This document shows, in pieces, positions 2,879-32,000 of a stretch of 32,000 bases of DNA (positions within the stretch are counted from its first letter, which is position 1; each line of letters begins with the position of its first letter). The notes beneath the pieces are model-generated. The model worked only from the letters and a program-made list of their open reading frames with translations, was not told the DNA's origin and searched no databases. This DNA comes from an uncultured Nitrososphaerota archaeon (GTDB taxonomy: Archaea; Korarchaeota; Korarchaeia; Korarchaeales; Korarchaeaceae). The stretch lies in contig CAYZRF010000015.1 in NCBI GenBank assembly GCA_964480775.1, positions 15,359 through 47,358 of the forward strand, given 5' to 3'. The position numbers and the translations under genes are program-made.

Positions 2879-2983
2879 GCCGGGGTACCCTAGTCCGGTA
2901 TGGGGCGGGCCTGGAGTCTGTAGTTGGCGGAGAGCCCGTGGCCCTTTTGGGCCGCGTGGGTTCGAATCCCACCCCCGGCGCCA
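2879..2983 (+). tRNA. tRNA-Ser (anticodon GGA at 2913-2915), class II with a long variable arm, 16-nt intron at 37/38 (2917-2932), encoded CCA
   Basis: Acceptor GCCGGGG/CCCCGGC. Anticodon stem CGGGC/GCCCG with loop CUGGAG|intron|A. Variable arm GGCCC-UUUU-GGGCC. T arm GUGGG-UUCGAAU-CCCAC. Discriminator G followed by CCA at 2981-2983. Confidence 0.85.
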
Positions 2984-4495: not shown

Positions 4496-5404
4496 TTGGA
4501 GTTGACAACATCACCAAAGAATCTAGGGGACCTAATGCTTAACTGGTATCAAAAGCAGCTTGGCAGCAGAGCCGAGCTTTCAAGGCCTGGTGATGATGAA
4601 TACTCTGTCTACATTCATATTGATGATTTTGAAGGAGGTAGAGAGGTCCTTGCCATTTTTCTAATTCCTGAAAGCGTTGAAGATTTTATTAAGTCTGTTA
4701 GAAACGAAATTAAATATTTAGAGGAGAAGGAAGTCCTCGTTGATTTTATTGATATTTGGGTTCCCCACGATTGGGTTGATAGATTAGAAGAGGTTGTTGA
4801 AGGCTTAAATGAAGAAAGCAAAGGCTTTCCTTTCATTAGGATTAGGGATTCTATCCAACTAAGTATTCCTATTTCAGCCCTAAAGGAACTCATATCAGGA
4901 TCAAAACCACCAGAAGTCACGTCTTTCAGACCAAAGGTTCCAAAGAGGACAGAGTCTAGGTTCAGGGAGGATAAGAGGCCAGCATTAAAGCATAAGAACG
5001 AGAGAGGTGTTGCCCTAACCGAGGAAAGATTAGAGGAGATTCTCGAGAGGGTTATAAGGAAGGTCGAAGGAGAAAGAAGAATAAACGACGTGGAGAAAAC
5101 GGTTGATGAGTTACAAAGAAGGATTTCCCTTTTAGAAGAAGTTATAAAGCTCCTTATTTCTTCCAAAAGTCCTCAACCCCAGTTTCCTCTAGATTCGTCC
5201 CTTATCCTCCCCGAGCATAAAACCGTTGAGAAAAAAGCGGCTAAAAAGTCAACCAAGCTTGAGCCAAAAATGAAAACAGTACCAAAGGATCAGGCAAGAA
5301 AATATTCTCCTGAACTCATTGAAGAGTTTGTAAAGGACAATCCTTGGGCTGAAGTTTTGAAGGAAAGGGGCAGGAGAGAGGAGGATGAAAACACCACATC
5401 ATGA
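4496..5404 (+). CDS. Hypothetical Lys/Glu-rich protein with a predicted coiled-coil, inserted between rps11 and rpoD
   Basis: 302-aa ORF on the same strand, within the operon. I recognise no family. Start is uncertain: TTG 4496 after GGAG, or ATG 4535. The opposite-strand ORF 4615..5166 looks like a shadow of it. Confidence 0.5.
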   Translation: MELTTSPKNLGDLMLNWYQKQLGSRAELSRPGDDEYSVYIHIDDFEGGREVLAIFLIPESVEDFIKSVRNEIKYLEEKEVLVDFIDIWVPHDWVDRLEEVVEGLNEESKGFPFIRIRDSIQLSIPISALKELISGSKPPEVTSFRPKVPKRTESRFREDKRPALKHKNERGVALTEERLEEILERVIRKVEGERRINDVEKTVDELQRRISLLEEVIKLLISSKSPQPQFPLDSSLILPEHKTVEKKAAKKSTKLEPKMKTVPKDQARKYSPELIEEFVKDNPWAEVLKERGRREEDENTTS

Positions 5405-15415: not shown

Positions 15416-17770
15416 ATGGGAGAAGCCAGGGACTCTTACTTGCTCTCTATGCGAGATATTCTCGAAAGGGTGGAAGATGAGAGAATTCTTTCCTTTTTGA
15501 AAGAATTGGGTGAGAGAGGCTCGATTAGCGTCGGGAGTTTTAAGGTTAGAAGGTTGGCAGCAGCCCTATATCATAATGCGGTTCCATCTAAACACGAGGA
15601 GATAAGCCTTCACCCTGATGTAAGAAGGATTCTCAGTGAAAGAGGGTTGCTTCTCCTTTTTACACATCAATCAAGAGCCATAAGGGCGATTAGAGAAGGT
15701 AAGAACGTCATCGTCGCAACGCCTGCGGCTAGCGGGAAGTCCCTAGTCTATTTGATTCCCATCTTCGAGAACTTTTTAGAAAACCCCAGGATGCACGCAC
15801 TCTACCTTGCCCCAACTAAAGCATTGGAAAGAGATCAGCTCCTAAAGATAAGAGATCTTTCCAAGTCAATTGAAGGATTTGGAGTTGCAGCCTACGATGG
15901 AGGGACTCCAACTGAGGAGAGGGTTGAGATCAGGAGGAACCCCCCGACCCTTCTCCTAACGAATCCAGATATGCTGCACTACGGTATCTTGCCCAACCAC
16001 AGGAGATGGAGTTCAGTTTTCTCCAGCCTTAAGTTCATAGTTCTCGATGAGGTTCATGAGTACAGAGGGATATTCGGGGCCCATGTAGCTAACATCCTAA
16101 GGCGGACGAAGCGTCTTGCTGAGATGTATGGGTCAAAACCCATATTCATCGCTGCCTCCGCCACCATTGCTAACCCCAAAGAGCACGTTGAAAGGCTAGT
16201 TGGTGAGAAGTTCGAGGTAATACAGGAGAGCGGCTCTCCTAAAACGGCTAAAATCATTCTTTTTTGGAATCCCGTCCCTGTTTTCGATCCTTACACCGAT
16301 GCTGAGCGTCTTTTCATTGGGGCCATCTCAGCTGGTTTGAAGACAATTGTATTTTGTAAATCAAGAAAGGCAGTTGAGATCATGACCCGGAACGTCAAGA
16401 GACACCTTCTCAGACTTGGTAGGGAGGATCTCCTCGAAAAAATAGCGTCCTATAGGTCTGGTTATCTTCCAAAGGAGAGGAGAAGGATTGAGAGGATGCT
16501 CTTTTCTGGAGAGCTTAGAGGCGTCGTGGCGACAAGCGCGTTGGAGCTTGGAATAGACGTGGGGGAGCTTGATTGCTGTATACTTGTAGGTTATCCTGGC
16601 TCAAGGATTAGCACGTTGCAGAGGGCAGGAAGGGTGGGAAGGAGAGTTGGAAAGGCTGGAATAATCATAATGGTAGCTTTGGAAGACGCCCTTGACCAAT
16701 ATTTTGTGAAAAATCCAGGAGAGCTATTTTCCGGAGAGGTCGAGAAGGCATTTGTAAATCCTGAGAACGAAAGGTTGCTTCCAATGCACGTGCTGTGCGC
16801 ATCCTCTGAACTACCCGTTAGGGAGGAGGATTCCACCTACTTCGGAAACAAGCTTCCTAACATTTTAGAGGGCTTAGAAAGAAAAGGAAAAGTGAAGAGG
16901 ACTGCCTTTGGTTATGTCTCATTGGTGAGCAGACCTCACGCCGAGGTTAGAATAAGGTCGATAGAGGACCCATTCACCTTGGTTAACGTAGATGCTGGCA
17001 AAGAGATAGGCCATGTGGATGGCGCTAGGGTTTTCAGGGAATGCTATCCTGGAGCCATTTACCTACACATGGATAGAGCATATCTTGTTGTAGGCCTAGA
17101 TATCGGTAGCAAAAAGGTTCTTTTGAGGAAAACTTCATTGAGGTACTACACCCAAGAGCTCGTATCCTCTGATGTGAGGATAACAAAGGTGTTGAATGAC
17201 TTTAGCAAAGGAGACATTAGGATAAAGCATGGAGAGGTCAGAGTTACCGAGCGCGTCGTTGGATTTAGAAAGAAGCCGATAAAAGGGGGAGCATCGATGG
17301 AAATCGTGCCTCTCTCCTTACCTCCTTATGAATTCGAATCTGAGGCCATATGGTTTGAGCTTCCGATGGAAATGTTGCGTTACGTAGAGGGTAAGGGTAT
17401 GGACTTCCACGGGGGAATTCATGGGAGTGAACACGCTTTGATAGCTATGGCCCCTTTGTTCACCCTATCTGACAGAGCTGATTTAGGCGGTGTTTCAACT
17501 CCATACCACTCTCAACTTGGTGGTCCAGGCATCTTCATATATGAAGCATATCCAGGAGGCGTAGGTATAGTGGAAAAGCTGTACAACGATGTTTTTTCTT
17601 GGGTGGAGAAGACCTATATCAACATTAAAGAGTGCGCTTGTGAATCGGGATGTCTTAGCTGTGGTCTATTGAGCCCAAAGTGCGGAAATGAGAACCAACC
17701 CCTGGATAAGGGGGCTGCAAAGTCCATATTGCTTTACATCCTAGGAAAAGAGGGTGAGGGATGGAAATAG
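15416..17770 (+). CDS. Superfamily-2 DEAD/DEAH helicase with a C-terminal DUF1998/MZB cysteine-cluster domain (Hrq1/MrfA/YprA-like, COG1205)
   Basis: Motif I ATPAASGKS, motif Ia APTKALERDQ, motif II DEVHEY, motif III SAT, motif VI QRAGRVGRR. The C-terminus has HGSEHALI...CACESGCLSCGLLSPKCGNEN. Confidence 0.85.
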   Translation: MGEARDSYLLSMRDILERVEDERILSFLKELGERGSISVGSFKVRRLAAALYHNAVPSKHEEISLHPDVRRILSERGLLLLFTHQSRAIRAIREGKNVIVATPAASGKSLVYLIPIFENFLENPRMHALYLAPTKALERDQLLKIRDLSKSIEGFGVAAYDGGTPTEERVEIRRNPPTLLLTNPDMLHYGILPNHRRWSSVFSSLKFIVLDEVHEYRGIFGAHVANILRRTKRLAEMYGSKPIFIAASATIANPKEHVERLVGEKFEVIQESGSPKTAKIILFWNPVPVFDPYTDAERLFIGAISAGLKTIVFCKSRKAVEIMTRNVKRHLLRLGREDLLEKIASYRSGYLPKERRRIERMLFSGELRGVVATSALELGIDVGELDCCILVGYPGSRISTLQRAGRVGRRVGKAGIIIMVALEDALDQYFVKNPGELFSGEVEKAFVNPENERLLPMHVLCASSELPVREEDSTYFGNKLPNILEGLERKGKVKRTAFGYVSLVSRPHAEVRIRSIEDPFTLVNVDAGKEIGHVDGARVFRECYPGAIYLHMDRAYLVVGLDIGSKKVLLRKTSLRYYTQELVSSDVRITKVLNDFSKGDIRIKHGEVRVTERVVGFRKKPIKGGASMEIVPLSLPPYEFESEAIWFELPMEMLRYVEGKGMDFHGGIHGSEHALIAMAPLFTLSDRADLGGVSTPYHSQLGGPGIFIYEAYPGGVGIVEKLYNDVFSWVEKTYINIKECACESGCLSCGLLSPKCGNENQPLDKGAAKSILLYILGKEGEGWK

Positions 17771-18803
17771 GTTGGAGGGTGCCTTACGTTCTTCTAGAAC
17801 CGCTCTCGTAAGAATTTCTGAGGAAAGCAGGGTTCCTCTTATTGGTGCCATTCCATTTGGGTTGATAGATAGAGGAACAAATGTCATTCAGGTTAGGCCC
17901 TCATCTATGTGCCCCCTTTCATGCATCTTTTGTTCTACAGATGCTGGTCCAAACTCAAGAACAAGACTTGCTGAGTACCTCGTTGATTTGGATTATATGA
18001 TCGCGTACTTTGAAAAACTGGTTGATTTCAAGGGGATAGATGACATAGAGGGGCATATCGATACCGTTGGAGATCCCCTAACTTATCCTTACCTTACAGA
18101 CCTCATTAAGAGGTTAAAACAAGATCCTAGAGTTAAGATAGTCTCAATCCAGACTCACGGCCATCTTTTGACCGAGGAAAAGGTATATGAGATGGAAGAA
18201 GCTGGTTTGGACAGGATAAACCTCAGCATAGACTCGCTTGATGCTGGGCGTGCTCGACTTCTCAGCGGTTCTCCCTATTATGACGTTGGAAAAGTGAAGG
18301 AACTGGCCAAAACAATAACAGAACGCACGAATATTGATCTTTTGATAGCTCCCGTTTGGGTTCCAGGAATTAACGATAAAGACATGCCTAAACTGATAGA
18401 GTTCGCTTTGTCCATAGGTGCTGGCAAAAGGTGGCCGCCCCTTGGAATTCAAAAGTACATTCCTCATAGGCTCGGGAGGAAGCCAAAAAACATCAAACCG
18501 ATGAGTTGGACCAAGTTTTATTCTGCTTTAGAACGTTGGGAATCCGAATTTGGTGTTAAGTTAATTCTCTCACCTAAGGACTTTGGAACTCATCTAGCCC
18601 CAAAGCTTCCAAACGTAATGAAGCTCGGCCAGGTTGTAAGGGCTAGAATAATTGGGCTTGGTTGGCGAAAAGGCGAAGCTCTTGCCGTGGTTAAGAACAG
18701 GGCCCTTATGATCCTAAATGCTGCAAGTCTACCTTTGGGCTCTGAGGTAAGAGTAAGGATAATCAGGGATAAAGACAACATCTACATGGGAAAGCTTGTT
18801 TAG
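17754..18803 (+). CDS. Radical SAM protein with a C-terminal TRAM/OB-like domain
   Basis: The CxxxCxxC cluster motif is present (MCPLSCIFCS). The C-terminal segment GQVVRARIIGLGWRKGEALAVV...GSEVRVRIIRD resembles a TRAM domain. The GTG start overlaps the helicase 3' end by 17 nt, but the start is uncertain. Confidence 0.72.
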   Translation: MRDGNRLEGALRSSRTALVRISEESRVPLIGAIPFGLIDRGTNVIQVRPSSMCPLSCIFCSTDAGPNSRTRLAEYLVDLDYMIAYFEKLVDFKGIDDIEGHIDTVGDPLTYPYLTDLIKRLKQDPRVKIVSIQTHGHLLTEEKVYEMEEAGLDRINLSIDSLDAGRARLLSGSPYYDVGKVKELAKTITERTNIDLLIAPVWVPGINDKDMPKLIEFALSIGAGKRWPPLGIQKYIPHRLGRKPKNIKPMSWTKFYSALERWESEFGVKLILSPKDFGTHLAPKLPNVMKLGQVVRARIIGLGWRKGEALAVVKNRALMILNAASLPLGSEVRVRIIRDKDNIYMGKLV

Positions 18804-18931
18804 ATGGATTTATTCCCAACATTGAATAATGATCTCAAGGGCTTCAGTTTTTAAAAGGTGAAATTCCTGTCGGATTGGAATCCCTGATAACCCCAAGATA
18901 ATAACATGAGATAGGAGGTTAATCTAGAAAG

Positions 18932-20173
18932 ATGAAATCCAGTTCTATATCCAAGTATAAGTTCAGAAAACTGCTAAAAATGCTCAAGGAGAAACAGGGG
19001 AGAGGCACTGAACTAATCTCGCTGTACATACCTCCAGGCAGGAATATCTTCGATGTAGGCAACTATTTGAGGCAGGAGCAAGACCAAGCAGGGAACATAA
19101 AGGACAAGTTAACGAGGAAAAACGTTCAATCATCAATAGAGAAGCTCATCCAATACCTGAAGCTCTATAGGAAGACGCCACCAAATGGTCTGGCGCTGTT
19201 CTGTGGAGCGATTCCTAGGGGTCCAGTAAGAGGGACCGAGAAGATAGAGATGTACGCGATAGAACCCCCTGAACCGGTAAGGTCCTTCATGTATGTATGC
19301 GACCAAACCTTCTATCTGGAGCCGTTAGAGGAGATGGCAAGGGAAAAGGACGTTTACGCCCTTCTAGTACTTGACAGAGGCGGCGGAACTATAGCGCTGT
19401 TGAGAGGAGCAAACTACTCTATTGTTAACAAAGTTTCTTCGGACGTGCCTCCAAAGCATAGTGCAGGTGGTTGGTCTCAGAGAAGGTTTGAGAGAATAAG
19501 AGAGGAGAAGGTCCATGAGTTCTTCAAGAAGTTTGGAGATGCGGCTAACAAATCTTTGCTTCCCTACCTCTCGGAACTCAAGGGGATAATCATAGGAGGC
19601 CCTGGCGATGCGAGGGAATTATTCGAACAGGGGAATTATCTGGATTATCGCCTGAAATCGAAAATCCTTGCCAACTTGCCCCTCTCGTATTCAGGGGAAG
19701 GCGGGCTCAGAGAGCTCATTGAAAAATCTATGGACGTCCTGAAAGGCGCTGCTCTAGTGGAAGAGAAGGAAGCTGTAGATAAGATCTTCAGGACCTTGGC
19801 GAGAAATCCAAACCTAGTGGCTTATGGAGTTAAGGACGTGCTACAGTCTTTGATGAGCGGACAGGCAGAGATGGTAGTTGTCCTGAACGACTTGAATTAC
19901 CTACACGTAAAACGAACTTGCCAGAACTGTGGTTTTGAAGAAGAGAAGCTCATAAAGGCCGAAGAGTTTGAAACTCAGGAGAACTCCATGCCCTGCCCGA
20001 AGTGTGGATCCACAACTTTTGAGGTTGAGAAAGAAGATATAATCGACTACATCGTTACTTTAGCAGAAGCGATATCTGCAGACGTCGTCGTTATATCAAG
20101 CGAGACTGAATGGGGCGAACAGTTAAAGTCCCTTGGGGGAGTAGCCGCCTTACTTAGATATGAAGCAAGCTGA
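18932..20173 (+). CDS. prf1: Peptide chain release factor aRF1 homolog with atypical GGW (for GGQ) and NIKD (for NIKS) motifs
   Basis: Collinear with aRF1/eRF1: GRGTELISLYIPP, NIK-loop AGNIKDKLTRKNV, YVCDQTF (YxCxxxF), KHSAGGWSQRRFERIREE, and a C-terminal CxxC...CxxC mini-domain. The codon at 19472-19474 is TGG. Confidence 0.85.
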   Translation: MKSSSISKYKFRKLLKMLKEKQGRGTELISLYIPPGRNIFDVGNYLRQEQDQAGNIKDKLTRKNVQSSIEKLIQYLKLYRKTPPNGLALFCGAIPRGPVRGTEKIEMYAIEPPEPVRSFMYVCDQTFYLEPLEEMAREKDVYALLVLDRGGGTIALLRGANYSIVNKVSSDVPPKHSAGGWSQRRFERIREEKVHEFFKKFGDAANKSLLPYLSELKGIIIGGPGDARELFEQGNYLDYRLKSKILANLPLSYSGEGGLRELIEKSMDVLKGAALVEEKEAVDKIFRTLARNPNLVAYGVKDVLQSLMSGQAEMVVVLNDLNYLHVKRTCQNCGFEEEKLIKAEEFETQENSMPCPKCGSTTFEVEKEDIIDYIVTLAEAISADVVVISSETEWGEQLKSLGGVAALLRYEAS

Positions 20174-20205: not shown

Positions 20206-20309
20206 GGGCCGGTAGCGCAGTCTGGTAGCGCGCCGCTCTCGCACTAAAAACGGTGATTTGCCGTCTTTGCGAACAGCGGAGGTCGCGGGTTCGAATCCCG
20301 CCCGGTCCA
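20206..20309 (+). tRNA. tRNA-Ala (anticodon CGC at 20240-20242) with a 30-nt intron (20244-20273, boundary ambiguous by 1 nt)
   Basis: Acceptor GGGCCGG/CCGGUCC contains the G3:U70 alanine identity pair. Anticodon stem CCGCU/AGCGG. The anticodon region UCGC pairs with GCGA at the intron 3' end. T arm GCGGG-UUCGAAU-CCCGC. No encoded CCA. Confidence 0.9.
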
Positions 20310-20343: not shown

Positions 20344-20458
20344 GGCCTTCGACTAGCACGGGAACATTAGTTGAACCCTCAAGGTAATTAGCTTATTTCG
20401 TTTAGAACATCTCGATTTTCAAAATAATTAATGATAACAGAGAGTTTTTACTTAAAAG

Positions 20459-20530
20459 AGCCGGGGCCGGGATTTGAACCCGGGATCTGCTGGTCTGCAG
20501 CCAGCCGCCTTGCCACTCGGCTACCCCGGC
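20459..20530 (-). tRNA. tRNA-Cys (anticodon GCA), no intron
   Basis: The reverse complement reads GCCGGGG-UA-GCC..GGC-G-GCUGG-CUGCAGA-CCAGC-AGAUC-CCGGG-UUCAAAU-CCCGG-CCCCGGC-U. The U73 discriminator fits Cys. Confidence 0.92.
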
Positions 20531-20613: not shown

Positions 20614-21903
20614 TTAGGCAAGTTTTCCCTTTATTTCTTCTATAAGCCTATCTAGAGGGATTTCTAACTCCTCACCACTATCTAGATCCCTTATTTTTAC
20701 TGCCTTCCTTTCAAGCTCCTTCCTTCCCAGCAAAACCGCAAACTTACACCCTCTCTTATCGGCATATTCAAGCTGCTTAGACAAAGGTCTCTCCCTCAGC
20801 TCTACCTCTGTTTTTATCCCAGCCGTTCGAAGATCCCTTGCTGTCTTAAGGGCAATGGGTTTTAGCTCTTGTCCTATGTAGGCGACAAAGACAGGCCTCC
20901 TTTCCCCTACCTCAATTATCCTCTTCTCCATAGCCGCTTCGACTAGACGATCGATTCCAAACGACATGCCAACGCACGGGATGTCTCGTCCTCCGTACAA
21001 GCTTATGAGATTATCATATCTTCCCCCTCCGCAAACCGAGTATGGTATTCCCTCCACCAAAATCTCGAAGACCATGCCTGTGTAGTAGGCTAATCCCCTA
21101 ACGATGTTTGGGGAAAAGAGAATCCACTTGCTTAATCCCATCTCTTTTCCAAGGTCAAAGAGCTTGGTTAAGCGCTCTATGACCTGCCTTAGCTTGGGCT
21201 CCTTCAGCATTGCAAGAGCCTCTCCTGGAGACTTCTTCTTCAATCCTAAAACGAACATTATCCTATCGAAGAGCTCTTTTCTGTCATCTAAGGCAGATAA
21301 AAGCTCTCGTTCAAACGTTTCTTTAGTAACCTTGTTTTTCTTGTCGATAACTAGCATCACCCTGTATTGTTGGCCAGGATCAAATCCTTCTTGTCCCAGC
21401 ATCTCCCTGAAGATCCGAACATCGTTTACTTCAACCCTAAAGTCCTTAAAACCCAGAGCCAACATTGAATCGATTACTAGGGATATAACCTCGAGGTCCG
21501 ACTCTACGGAGGATGCACCTATCAGCTCGACACCTGCCTGCCAAAACTCCCTATACCTCATTTTCTGGGGTTCATCGTATCTGAACACGCTCCCGAAGTA
21601 ACTCCATTTGACGGGAAGCTTTAGCTCCCCAGCCTTCTGTACGAAGAGCCTAGCTATCGATGGGGTGAATTCTGGCCTTAAAGCCACTTTTCTGCCGCCA
21701 AAGTCAGTAAAGGTATACATATGCCTCTCTATTTCCTCTCCAGACTTCCTTTCGAATAGAGAAAATGGTTCCAGCGTAGGTAATACAACTTCTTCGAATC
21801 CGTAGAGAGTAAATACCGTTCTTAACGTATCCTCTACCCTTTGAAGTACCCTTACTTCCTTGGGTAGCAGTACCCTAAAGCCCCTTAGCGGTGAGAAATC
21901 CAT
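20614..21903 (-). CDS. hisS: Histidyl-tRNA synthetase
   Basis: 429 aa with class II motifs: LRPEFTPSIARLF, FRYDEPQKMRYREFWQAGVELIG and GGGRYDNL, plus a C-terminal anticodon-binding domain. Confidence 0.93.
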   Translation of the reverse strand: MDFSPLRGFRVLLPKEVRVLQRVEDTLRTVFTLYGFEEVVLPTLEPFSLFERKSGEEIERHMYTFTDFGGRKVALRPEFTPSIARLFVQKAGELKLPVKWSYFGSVFRYDEPQKMRYREFWQAGVELIGASSVESDLEVISLVIDSMLALGFKDFRVEVNDVRIFREMLGQEGFDPGQQYRVMLVIDKKNKVTKETFERELLSALDDRKELFDRIMFVLGLKKKSPGEALAMLKEPKLRQVIERLTKLFDLGKEMGLSKWILFSPNIVRGLAYYTGMVFEILVEGIPYSVCGGGRYDNLISLYGGRDIPCVGMSFGIDRLVEAAMEKRIIEVGERRPVFVAYIGQELKPIALKTARDLRTAGIKTEVELRERPLSKQLEYADKRGCKFAVLLGRKELERKAVKIRDLDSGEELEIPLDRLIEEIKGKLA

Positions 21904-21958: not shown

Positions 21959-22051
21959 GGGCCCGTAGCTCAGTAGGATTAGAGCGACGGCCTCCTAGGC
22001 CTCGTCGAAGAAAGCCGTAGGTCGCGGGTTCGAGTCCCGCCGGGCCCGCCA
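21959..22051 (+). tRNA. tRNA-Arg (anticodon CCU at 21994-21996) with a 15-nt intron at 37/38 (21998-22012), encoded CCA
   Basis: GGGCCCG-UA-GCUC..GAGC-G-ACGGC-CUCCUA|intron|A-GCCGU-AGGUC-GCGGG-UUCGAGU-CCCGC-CGGGCCC-G-CCA. Confidence 0.9.
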
Positions 22052-30657: not shown

Positions 30658-32000
30658 ATGGGGCGCCAAATGGACATTGAACTTATAGAAGAACTCTCAT
30701 CCAACAGGATTCTTAGGACTGCGTGGTATTCCATCGTGGTCGGTTTCTTCTTTTTGTTCGTCCTGATACCTCCCATATACCTTTTTGCTTATTTAGCTGG
30801 AAGTTTTGACAAACTTCCTCTTATCCTAAGTAACCCCGAAATAGTTAAGGATATGAAGAGTGCCATAAGTTTAAGCTACGCTGTTGCCGCAACTGTCACA
30901 ATAATAGATGCAATAGCTGCCCTCCCTATGGCTTGGATTCTTTTGAAAAAGGAATTTCGTTTAAAGCGTTTTCTTGACACGTTGTTGGATCTTCCAATGG
31001 CACTACCGACATCAGCCCTTGGTTTCTCTGTAGCGATGTTCTGGCTCAAAATGACAAGTCTCAGAAGTGCTTTTTGGGGAGTAGTAGCATTGCACGTGGC
31101 AATGAGCTATCCCTACATGCTTAGAACTTTAATAGCTTCCTTAAAGGCCGTGAAATCTCAATATGAGATTGCTGCCCGCACTCTAGGCGCCCATCCTTTC
31201 ACGGTGGCTAGAACAGTTACTCTTCCTATTGCAAAACCCGGCATAATCGCTGGGAGCATTCTTTGTTTTGCGAAAAGCTTGAGTGAAACTGGAGGAACTG
31301 CAGTAACCCTTTCAATAATAGGAGCAATAGAACGGACGGGTCCCGTTCTTATTAAGGCTTGGAAATCAGCTGAAACGCAAACTGAGGTTTTTTTCCTAGC
31401 AGGAGGCATCCTAAGTGCTATATTGATCATTTCATCCTTGGTCGTTTTGTACTCTTTTAGGATGCTAGCTTCTAGGTGGAAACTACCCATAAAGAGGATA
31501 TGGTCTTGGGAGAGGAGGATAAGTCGAAGGCCGTTTACCTCTATTAGAGATTTTCTGTCGATATTTTTCTCTATATTTTTTGTTCTCATTCCTTCAATGT
31601 TCATAGCTCTTTTTCCCCTTTGGTTGAATGTTGAGGGAGTTCCTAGAGGTCTTTTTTCTGCGATCTGGAACTCAGTCCTAATAGCTTTGATAACTACGCT
31701 GATAAACCTATTTACTGGGGTACCGCTCTCAATCTTGATAGCACGCTCTAAATCCCCCGCTGTAGCAAGCTTACTTGATGCTCTAGTTAACATCCCCCTT
31801 ATAGTTCCCACAACAGCCTTAGGATTTTCAATATCTCTTTTCTGGAGTAGAGGGATTGCTCTAGGTCTCTCCGACCTATCTGTGATCTCTTTAGCCCACA
31901 TATCTTTTACCCAACCATTGCTGGTAAGAAACGTGATAGCATCGCTTGAACAGTTAGATCCATCCTTAGAAGACACTGCAAGAACGCTTGGCGCAAATCC
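30658..32000 (+). CDS. ABC transporter permease with two fused MetI-like transmembrane domains (FbpB/ThiP-type), 3'-truncated by the window edge
   Basis: Open frame from ATG 30658 to the window end, so it is not in the supplied track. It is strongly hydrophobic and carries two EAA-type loops: YEIAARTLGAHPFTVARTVTLPIAKPG and LEDTARTLGAN... Confidence 0.75.
   Translation, partial: MGRQMDIELIEELSSNRILRTAWYSIVVGFFFLFVLIPPIYLFAYLAGSFDKLPLILSNPEIVKDMKSAISLSYAVAATVTIIDAIAALPMAWILLKKEFRLKRFLDTLLDLPMALPTSALGFSVAMFWLKMTSLRSAFWGVVALHVAMSYPYMLRTLIASLKAVKSQYEIAARTLGAHPFTVARTVTLPIAKPGIIAGSILCFAKSLSETGGTAVTLSIIGAIERTGPVLIKAWKSAETQTEVFFLAGGILSAILIISSLVVLYSFRMLASRWKLPIKRIWSWERRISRRPFTSIRDFLSIFFSIFFVLIPSMFIALFPLWLNVEGVPRGLFSAIWNSVLIALITTLINLFTGVPLSILIARSKSPAVASLLDALVNIPLIVPTTALGFSISLFWSRGIALGLSDLSVISLAHISFTQPLLVRNVIASLEQLDPSLEDTARTLGAN

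Follow-up and report, generated by a model that had tools for sequence, protein, structure and literature searches.

Class-I release factors of archaea and eukaryotes (aRF1/eRF1) carry a GGQ tripeptide whose glutamine, described as universally conserved, is methylated by Mtq2 (PMC6144793); recent papers both treat GGQ as universal and propose its methylation for archaea in general (PMC6144793, PMC5799190). The two glycines adopt conformations open only to glycine (PMC4691834, PMC5799190). The critical catalytic group is the main-chain NH of the glutamine, to which the attacking water is coordinated; a Q-to-P change abolishes release, and the glutamine side chain packs a pocket and selects the water, with N5-methylation improving the packing (PMC4691834, PMC5799190). 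In aVLRF-1 and acVLRF-1 the catalytic motif is GGxSQ (Burroughs & Aravind 2019, PMC6514570). Here an aRF1 gene is described in which the catalytic glutamine is replaced by tryptophan. The gene lies on a 32,000-nucleotide stretch of contig CAYZRF010000015.1 from an uncultured archaeon of the Korarchaeia, analyzed as a whole and hereafter called the window. The GGW motif is real, fixed and carried by an orthologous gene under strong purifying selection, the catalytic loop is otherwise intact, stop codon use is standard, and the replacement has arisen convergently in other archaea.

The gene and the motifs bearing on its function are located as follows.

18932..20173, + strand: aRF1 gene with GGW, a class-I release factor of 413 aa with ATG start and TGA stop.
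18914..18919, + strand: Shine-Dalgarno-like GGAGGT, its last base 12 nt 5' of the ATG; read from the sequence, with a putative function.
19094..19105, + strand: NIKD, N55-D58 (AAC ATA AAG GAC), the stop-codon-recognition motif in its Korarchaeia/Thermoproteota form.
19292..19312, + strand: YVCDQTF, Y121-F127, an intact YxCxxxF stop-codon-recognition motif; Y121, C123 and F127 are invariant in the Korarchaeia alignment.
19466..19474, + strand: GGT GGT TGG, G179 G180 W181, with Trp (codon 19472-19474) for the catalytic Gln of GGQ.
19475..19489, + strand: S182 Q183 R184 R185 F186, with Gln183 (CAG, 19478-19480) at +2 giving GGxSQ; a candidate relocated amide.
19919..20005, + strand: zinc-ribbon-like CxxC...CPxC insertion in the C-terminal domain (C330, C333, C355, C358, all four Cys invariant in the alignment).

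The product matched the TIGR03676 equivalog hidden Markov model (HMM) over residues 8-411 of 413 with 478.1 bits against a cut-off of 234.7, and Pfam domains eRF1_1 (PF03463, residues 13-135), eRF1_2 (PF03464, 142-271) and eRF1_3 (PF03465, 276-411) were present in that order. A Pfam acVLRF1 match on residues 144-233 was also observed; ordinary GGQ aRF1s give the same match. Matches to aRF1/eRF1 proteins in the PDB reached E=5e-77 (4AF1, collinear), and in residue-by-residue HMMER alignments to solved aRF1 structures W181 aligned exactly on the Q of GGQ ('kggqsaqrf' in 4AF1, 'mggqsqrry' in 3AGK). An AlphaFold model produced with 32 relatives as input (mean predicted local distance difference test score, pLDDT, 85.8) places W181 at the end of the loop preceding a long helix (183-212), in keeping with a GGQ loop. 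A preliminary description of the window had reported an open reading frame (ORF) collinear with class-I release factors, with NIKD at 19094-19105 and GGW at 19466-19474; the TIGR03676, Pfam and PDB alignments bear out the collinearity and both motifs are confirmed in frame in the 413-aa ORF. HMM score, three-domain architecture, NIKS-type and YxCxxxF motifs, synteny and phylogeny all place the gene with aRF1. The GGQ tripeptide is the exception, with GGW found instead and both glycines and the remainder of the loop kept. On these sequence grounds the gene is by descent an aRF1 ortholog, yet a variant and not a standard member, since the hallmark residue is missing. The zinc-ribbon-like insertion is also found in GGQ Korarchaeia and is therefore unrelated to the GGW change.

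Relatives were collected by searching 5.8 billion proteins and were then scanned for the motifs. GGW was present in all seven of the closest protein clusters (P0001-P0007, 99% down to 68% identity) and GGQ in every more distant relative, from 65% identity downwards. The GGW-clade sequences derive from about 14 assemblies, mostly of hydrothermal sediments, with NCBI, JGI, ENA and Logan as sources; they include the metagenome-assembled genome (MAG) Kor4 (GCA_037917635.1), the GTDB representative CAZUBM01, Guaymas-type 'GBSed' sediment and other hydrothermal-vent metagenomes. In a metagenome scan for further clade members only a few extra contigs were recovered, and two candidates, L093 and L094, were ordinary crenarchaeal NIKL/GGQ aRF1s instead. 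At the DNA level TGG is invariant, the codons of the two preceding glycines vary (GGTGGT, GGAGGG, GGCGGA, GGCGGC, GGAGGT), the Q183 codon is CAG or CAA, and synonymous sites are saturated between most clade members (synonymous divergence, dS, above 1.6). A lineage-specific tolerated variant, one of the options in the preliminary description, is the best fit to the evidence. That description had also envisaged that orthologs in the closest relatives might show GGW to be a fixed trait already documented; fixation was found, and among the papers searched none pairs GGW with release factors or reports a Q-to-W mutant.

In a neighbour-joining tree the GGW sequences form one clade inside Korarchaeia on a stem branch of ordinary length. 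The gene order in the window is helicase, radical-SAM, aRF1, two tRNAs and then histidyl-tRNA synthetase (HisRS) on the opposite strand.

17754..18803, + strand: radical-SAM gene, the upstream synteny anchor in the GGW clade, with the same neighbour in Kor4, L013 and L097.
20206..20309, + strand: intron-containing tRNA directly 3' of aRF1 (Rfam tRNA, 59.5 bits; found by ARAGORN in intron mode only, anticodon call unreliable).
20458..20530, - strand: tRNA-Cys (GCA).
20614..21903, - strand: HisRS gene, the downstream synteny anchor common to GGQ Korarchaeia.

The arrangement of aRF1 (+) followed by HisRS (-) was also detected by tblastn in GGQ Korarchaeia (loci L009-L012), and the GGW gene therefore sits at the normal aRF1 position. 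The aRF1 protein is 84% identical to that of Kor4, with neighbours at 65-81%, and 93% identical to that of L013, with neighbours at 78-91%; across the GGW/GGQ divide aRF1 identity is 63% and that of HisRS 44-46%. Pairwise ratios of nonsynonymous to synonymous divergence (dN/dS) were 0.02-0.045 within the GGW clade, where dS was measurable, and 0.024-0.17 for GGQ Korarchaeia pairs. Eleven fixed differences in total separate the GGW and GGQ Korarchaeia groups (Y50Q, M147L and R193K among them), and none of these, when examined for co-substitution with W181, was obviously compensatory. In the loop region the groups differ only by V172 for I and W181 for Q, with K175, A178, G179, G180, S182, Q183, R184 and R185 invariant across both. 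The Y50Q difference lies in the stop-codon-reading region, where residue 50 (19079-19081), beside the conserved Glu before NIKD, is Gln in all GGW-clade members and Tyr in 23/23 GGQ Korarchaeia. Searches by tblastn of the window and of all fetched loci detected no second aRF1 and no pelota-like match. GTDB genomes were scanned with two narrow, Korarchaeia-type peptide patterns (QA[GS]NIKDK and AGG[QW]SQRRF); among the best 80 loci, from genomes that are MAGs, the two genomes with GGW (Kor4 JAVCBX01 and CAZUBM01) were each represented by the GGW locus alone.

Stop codon use in the window is standard, with 14 TAA, 14 TGA and 10 TAG stops and long ORFs over 88% of the sequence. Ribosomal proteins, RNA polymerase subunits, aIF5A, Pus10 and other conserved genes of the window have full-length Pfam matches, in agreement with the preliminary statements that genes here end with all three stops, that conserved genes lack in-frame stops and that the code is standard. 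A stop-codon anticodon was called in none of the seven window tRNAs. An altered genetic code in the window is ruled out by the three stops, the 88% coding density, the full-length conserved genes and the lack of a suppressor-type tRNA. A signature of leaky termination was likewise rejected, albeit on a small sample: of 110 genes in GGW loci, 26.4% have a tandem in-frame stop no more than five codons further on, and of 427 genes in GGQ Korarchaeia loci, 26.9%. The preliminary description had given weight to NIKD in place of NIKS. NIKD was present in every Korarchaeia aRF1 examined, GGQ or GGW alike, as well as in several other Thermoproteota lineages (54/231 aRF1 sequences), and Korarchaeia loci with NIKD use all three stop codons; as the lineage norm, NIKD is ruled out as a sign of changed stop specificity.

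Replacement of the catalytic glutamine extends beyond Korarchaeia. When 1.84 billion 50%-identity representatives were searched exhaustively with HMMER and the best 150 were scanned for motifs, W, F or M was found at the glutamine position in roughly twenty of these 150, most of them with NIKS-type and YxCxxxF motifs. GGM in P0101, P0123 and P0129 defines a monophyletic clade within the Bathyarchaeia aRF1s (mutual identity 69-79%), in which the motif reads GGMSARRF or GGMSAQRF and ATG persists although the adjacent Gly codons differ. The corresponding genes are at the following positions.

L101:176-1429: Bathyarchaeia GGM aRF1 (P0123).
L102:2385-3650: Bathyarchaeia GGM aRF1 (P0101).
L103:279-1532: Bathyarchaeia GGM aRF1 (P0129).

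The JGI metagenome that yielded the L102 gene (Ga0164311) also contains a 99% identical relative of the window GGW gene. Scattered variants were also found with GGF (P0238, P0270, P0310), GGM (P0258, P0261, P0271, P0295) and GGW (P0243, P0311, P0343, P0358; locus L104:10001-11197). In two GGE sequences (P0297, P0331) the N-domain motifs are degenerate, and these proteins resemble either divergent paralogs or aeRF1-like proteins of bacteria. A further search, seeded with P0236, recovered a large DPANN clade (P0236 and P0382-P0499; locus L105:10001-11212) with GGW in 114/119 clusters; the motifs comprise 83 GGWSQ, 30 GGWSA (mostly GGWSAN), one GGW with an intein and five GGQSA. GGW thus appears to be the norm in this clade, whose assignment to DPANN rests on NCBI names (Aenigmarchaeota, Nanoarchaeota, Micrarchaeota). 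On a rough neighbour-joining tree with the motif columns removed, at least 8 separate origins of glutamine replacement were counted. The Korarchaeia GGW clade shares 30-49% identity with the other variants and branches separately from them, which argues for an independent origin rather than transfer. Since the glutamine has been replaced in several archaeal lineages, the phenomenon is recurrent and not a single oddity, and the premise of the preliminary description that GGQ is universally conserved does not hold, given GGW in DPANN, GGM in Bathyarchaeia and GGF elsewhere. Many archaeal aRF1 genes were also observed to carry an intein exactly between the third residue of GGQ, GGW, GGM or GGF and the following Ser (cysteine as the first and HN as the last intein residues); such representatives are 500-1450 aa long (e.g. 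P0254, P0256, P0259, P0265, P0284, P0295). Some intein-bearing aRF1s have a further insertion near residue 120, at the YxC motif, so that both functional motifs are occupied.

The residues following the variant position differ in frequency between variant and GGQ proteins. Gln at +2 was present in 12/16 variant representatives vs 24/93 GGQ representatives (Fisher p=2.5e-4, uncorrected for phylogeny), and in five lineages a GG[WF]SQ variant has GGQSA in its nearest GGQ neighbours. Among 499 sequences fetched, those with neither Gln at +2 nor Asn/Gln at +3 were 2/142 variants vs 236/352 GGQ proteins. This distribution suggests that the side-chain amide may have been relocated to +2 or +3 in the variants. 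GGWSQ required the substitution of only one residue in Korarchaeia, whose ancestral motif already read GGQSQ.

The explanation that we favour, with moderate confidence, is that the window gene is the ordinary, orthologous and probably only aRF1 of a hydrothermal-sediment subclade of Korarchaeia, in whose ancestor Gln to Trp became fixed with full function most likely kept. A working release factor seems most likely because the gene occupies the aRF1-HisRS position, is conserved above its neighbours, has a near-unchanged loop and serves genes using three stops, and because no second aRF1 was seen, the last being a weak argument. Sole-copy status, catalytic competence and the roles of W181 and Q183 are inferred from these comparisons. 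In the mechanism proposed, the N domain would read UAA, UAG and UGA through NIKD and YxCxxxF, aEF1-alpha would deliver the factor via its C domain, and the GGW loop would enter the peptidyl-transferase centre and trigger peptidyl-tRNA hydrolysis. The two glycines would preserve loop geometry and the main-chain NH of residue 181 would still coordinate the attacking water. A Trp, Met or Phe residue here leaves the main-chain NH in place and could also pack the pocket. This packing potential, together with the association of variants with GG[WFM]-S-Q, leads to the proposal that the bulky W181 may assume the packing role of the normally N5-methylated glutamine side chain and that Gln183, placed as in the GGxSQ of VLRF-1-type hydrolases, may supply a side-chain amide or carbonyl. 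With Trp at 181, Mtq2 methylation of that position is impossible.

Several observations weigh against this interpretation. Gln at +2 is absent from the 30 DPANN clusters with GGWSA (mostly GGWSAN) and from P0101 (GGMSARRF), the association tests are uncorrected for phylogeny, and the tree on which origins were counted is a rough neighbour-joining one. Q183 is ancestral in Korarchaeia and for that reason gives no signal specific to the lineage. Steric considerations make a plain shift of register by two residues doubtful, since it would bring W and S into positions that only glycine conformations fit (PMC4691834). The single-copy result is weak, coming from two narrow peptide patterns and the best 80 loci of MAGs. 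Every GGQ residue is reported to be essential in vivo in model organisms (PMC9589212), and a yeast Q182E variant could not be propagated even beside a wild-type copy (PMC12440015).

Four other accounts of the GGW gene were considered. A Q-to-W change at a supposedly universal site is a typical artefact suspect, and error had been kept as an option in the preliminary description even though a single sequencing error was there thought unlikely. The latter judgement is borne out, since about 14 independent assemblies, made by different projects with different assemblers, have the same codon amid synonymous differences; conservation and synonymous codon variation around TGG refute the error option, and with an ORF that is intact, full length and under the constraint described above, sequencing or assembly error or a pseudogene has practically no probability. 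It is also highly improbable that glutamine is present at position 181 after all, through recoding, RNA editing or a UGG-reading tRNA-Gln, with the genomic tryptophan only apparent. Such a process must hit one UGG codon alone or else change all Trp codons, including other conserved ones such as W394 in TEWGEQL that are common to GGQ relatives, and since the convergent variants include M (ATG) and F (Phe codons) no single recoding explanation would serve. A specialized paralog, in which the GGW protein acts in rescue, regulation or decoding block and a canonical GGQ aRF1 elsewhere terminates normally, is unlikely. Some archaea carry two aRF1 genes, and the genome scan covered two Korarchaeia-type patterns and the best 80 loci of MAGs. 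The GGW gene nevertheless occupies the same position beside HisRS as the single GGQ aRF1 of sister Korarchaeia, branches as the species lineage should without a long branch, has dN/dS as low as canonical aRF1 with stop-codon motifs and C domain intact, and has no second copy from JAVCBX01 or CAZUBM01 among those 80 loci. Moreover, the GGQ Korarchaeia with the most similar NIKD context (L010 type) adjoin HisRS in other genomes, indicating that they are orthologs and not co-resident paralogs. The divergent or inactive paralog of the preliminary description is accordingly disfavoured by synteny, normal branch length, low dN/dS and an intact loop.

The remaining alternative is a terminator dead in hydrolysis, which would recognize stops, permit Pelota-style ABCE1-driven splitting and leave peptidyl-tRNA to be hydrolysed off the ribosome, for example by Pth2. 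The reported in vivo requirement for the glutamine in model systems (PMC9589212) would accord with such a factor, as would the M and C domains common to aRF1 and Pelota, which works without GGQ (PMC6514570), the 75.7 bits scored against the pelota HMM, and a PTH2 gene about 5 kb away in syntenic contigs. Pth2 is, on the other hand, a general archaeal housekeeping gene whose proximity reflects common synteny, and families losing catalysis, such as Dom34 and baeRF, show decay of the loop in sequence and length (PMC6514570), whereas here the GG, S, Q, R, R residues do not vary, the loop has a constant length and dN/dS is very low. The account fits poorly because the loop is perfectly conserved while those of inactive relatives decay. 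In addition, no genomic sign of impaired termination was seen in the form of a tandem-stop excess, and repeated origin of the same substitution is easier to explain if function was kept. We therefore consider loss of hydrolysis very unlikely and retain the view that the GGW protein is most likely a functional aRF1.

Other features of the neighbourhood were recorded. Intron-containing tRNAs at 20206-20309 (+) and 2879-2980 (+) were found by Rfam and not by ARAGORN in default mode. With introns allowed, the ARAGORN call at 21959-22051 changed from Arg-CCU to Trp-CCA and that at 1431-1518 from Arg-UCG to Ser-UGA; since the calls shift in this way, these tRNA identities are uncertain. On the Kor4 contig JAVCBX010000114.1 (L003:3136-4839) resolvase and Cas12f1/TnpB-like genes lie between CTP-transferase-like and CN-hydrolase genes, a mobile element in an otherwise syntenic housekeeping block that is not so interrupted in the window. 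At the P0005 locus (L096:8429-12440, ENA ERZ584659, 85% identical) aRF1 is inverted in place, giving HisRS (+), aRF1 (+), radical-SAM (-) compared with radical-SAM (+), aRF1 (+), HisRS (-) in the window. Two ORFs in the ribosomal-protein/housekeeping block, 4496-5404 (+, 302 aa) and 31158-31976 (-, 272 aa), gave no Pfam match at E<=0.001.

A broader reading, on which we are evenly divided, is that a Korarchaeia subclade, a Bathyarchaeia subclade and much of DPANN would terminate all protein synthesis without the catalytic glutamine, with W, M or F filling the pocket, the amide moved to +2 or +3, and Mtq2 methylation of GGQ obsolete or retargeted. Should the GGW, GGM and GGF factors be sole release factors, which seems the likelier case, the 'universal' GGQ glutamine would be dispensable in nature, and a direct handle on the purpose of its side chain and of its methylation would be gained. 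So far, arguments over the role of that side chain in water coordination, nucleophile selection or packing have relied on mutants that prove lethal or unstable in vivo; variants that are natural and strongly selected would constitute evolutionary experiments on the same question. They predict that viable substitutions are large hydrophobic residues and that the accompanying second-site change is Gln at +2. The findings would also bear on Mtq2/Trm112 retention, on the annotation of release factors as 'active' from GGQ, and on release-factor engineering for genetic-code expansion.

Compared with known systems, the window protein resembles canonical aRF1/eRF1 (TIGR03676; PDB 4AF1, 3AGK/3VMF, 1DT9) in its three-domain architecture, NIKx and YxCxxxF motifs, catalytic-loop length and flanks (KHSAGG-x-SQRRF), an HMM score twice the cut-off and orthologous genomic position, and other Korarchaeia aRF1s in the Zn-ribbon insertion of the C domain; it differs from the canonical factors in having Trp at the GGQ glutamine. 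With aVLRF-1 and acVLRF-1 it shares the G-G-x-S-Q form (GGWSQ, residues 179-183), membership of the aeRF-1 superfamily and an RNase-H-like M domain. Those families differ in their longer catalytic loop, aVLRF-1 also in having an N-terminal coiled coil and lacking the C-terminal Pelota-type domain, and acVLRF-1 in lacking a codon-recognition domain; a VLRF-1 identity was rejected on the score against NF041024 (44.5, cut-off 125) and the full N-M-C aRF1 architecture. Pelota/Dom34 is similar in its M and C domains, the lack of a catalytic Gln and delivery by the same GTPase family, but has an Sm-like N domain without NIKS or YxCxxxF and a degenerate loop, whereas the N domain and loop of the window protein are canonical. 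Identity with Pelota was rejected, as TIGR00111 scored 75.7 against a cut-off of 177.65 over residues 140-411 only and the N domain is eRF1_1 with NIKD and YxCxxxF. The same residue is substituted in laboratory mutants of RF1, RF2 and eRF1 (Shaw & Green 2007, Santos et al. 2013 and Seit-Nebi et al. 2000, summarised in PMC4691834 and cited in PMC12440015), which show the side chain to be not strictly needed for the chemistry in vitro and the main-chain NH to be needed. Such mutants are reported to be lethal or unstable in vivo (PMC12440015, PMC9589212), whereas GGW is natural and fixed in whole lineages. Further parallels are the GGW, GGM and GGF aRF1s of DPANN and Bathyarchaeia, many of the DPANN variants differing from the window gene in having an intein between GGx and S; like the window protein, these are otherwise canonical aRF1s, mostly GGxSQ, with a large hydrophobic residue in place of the glutamine.

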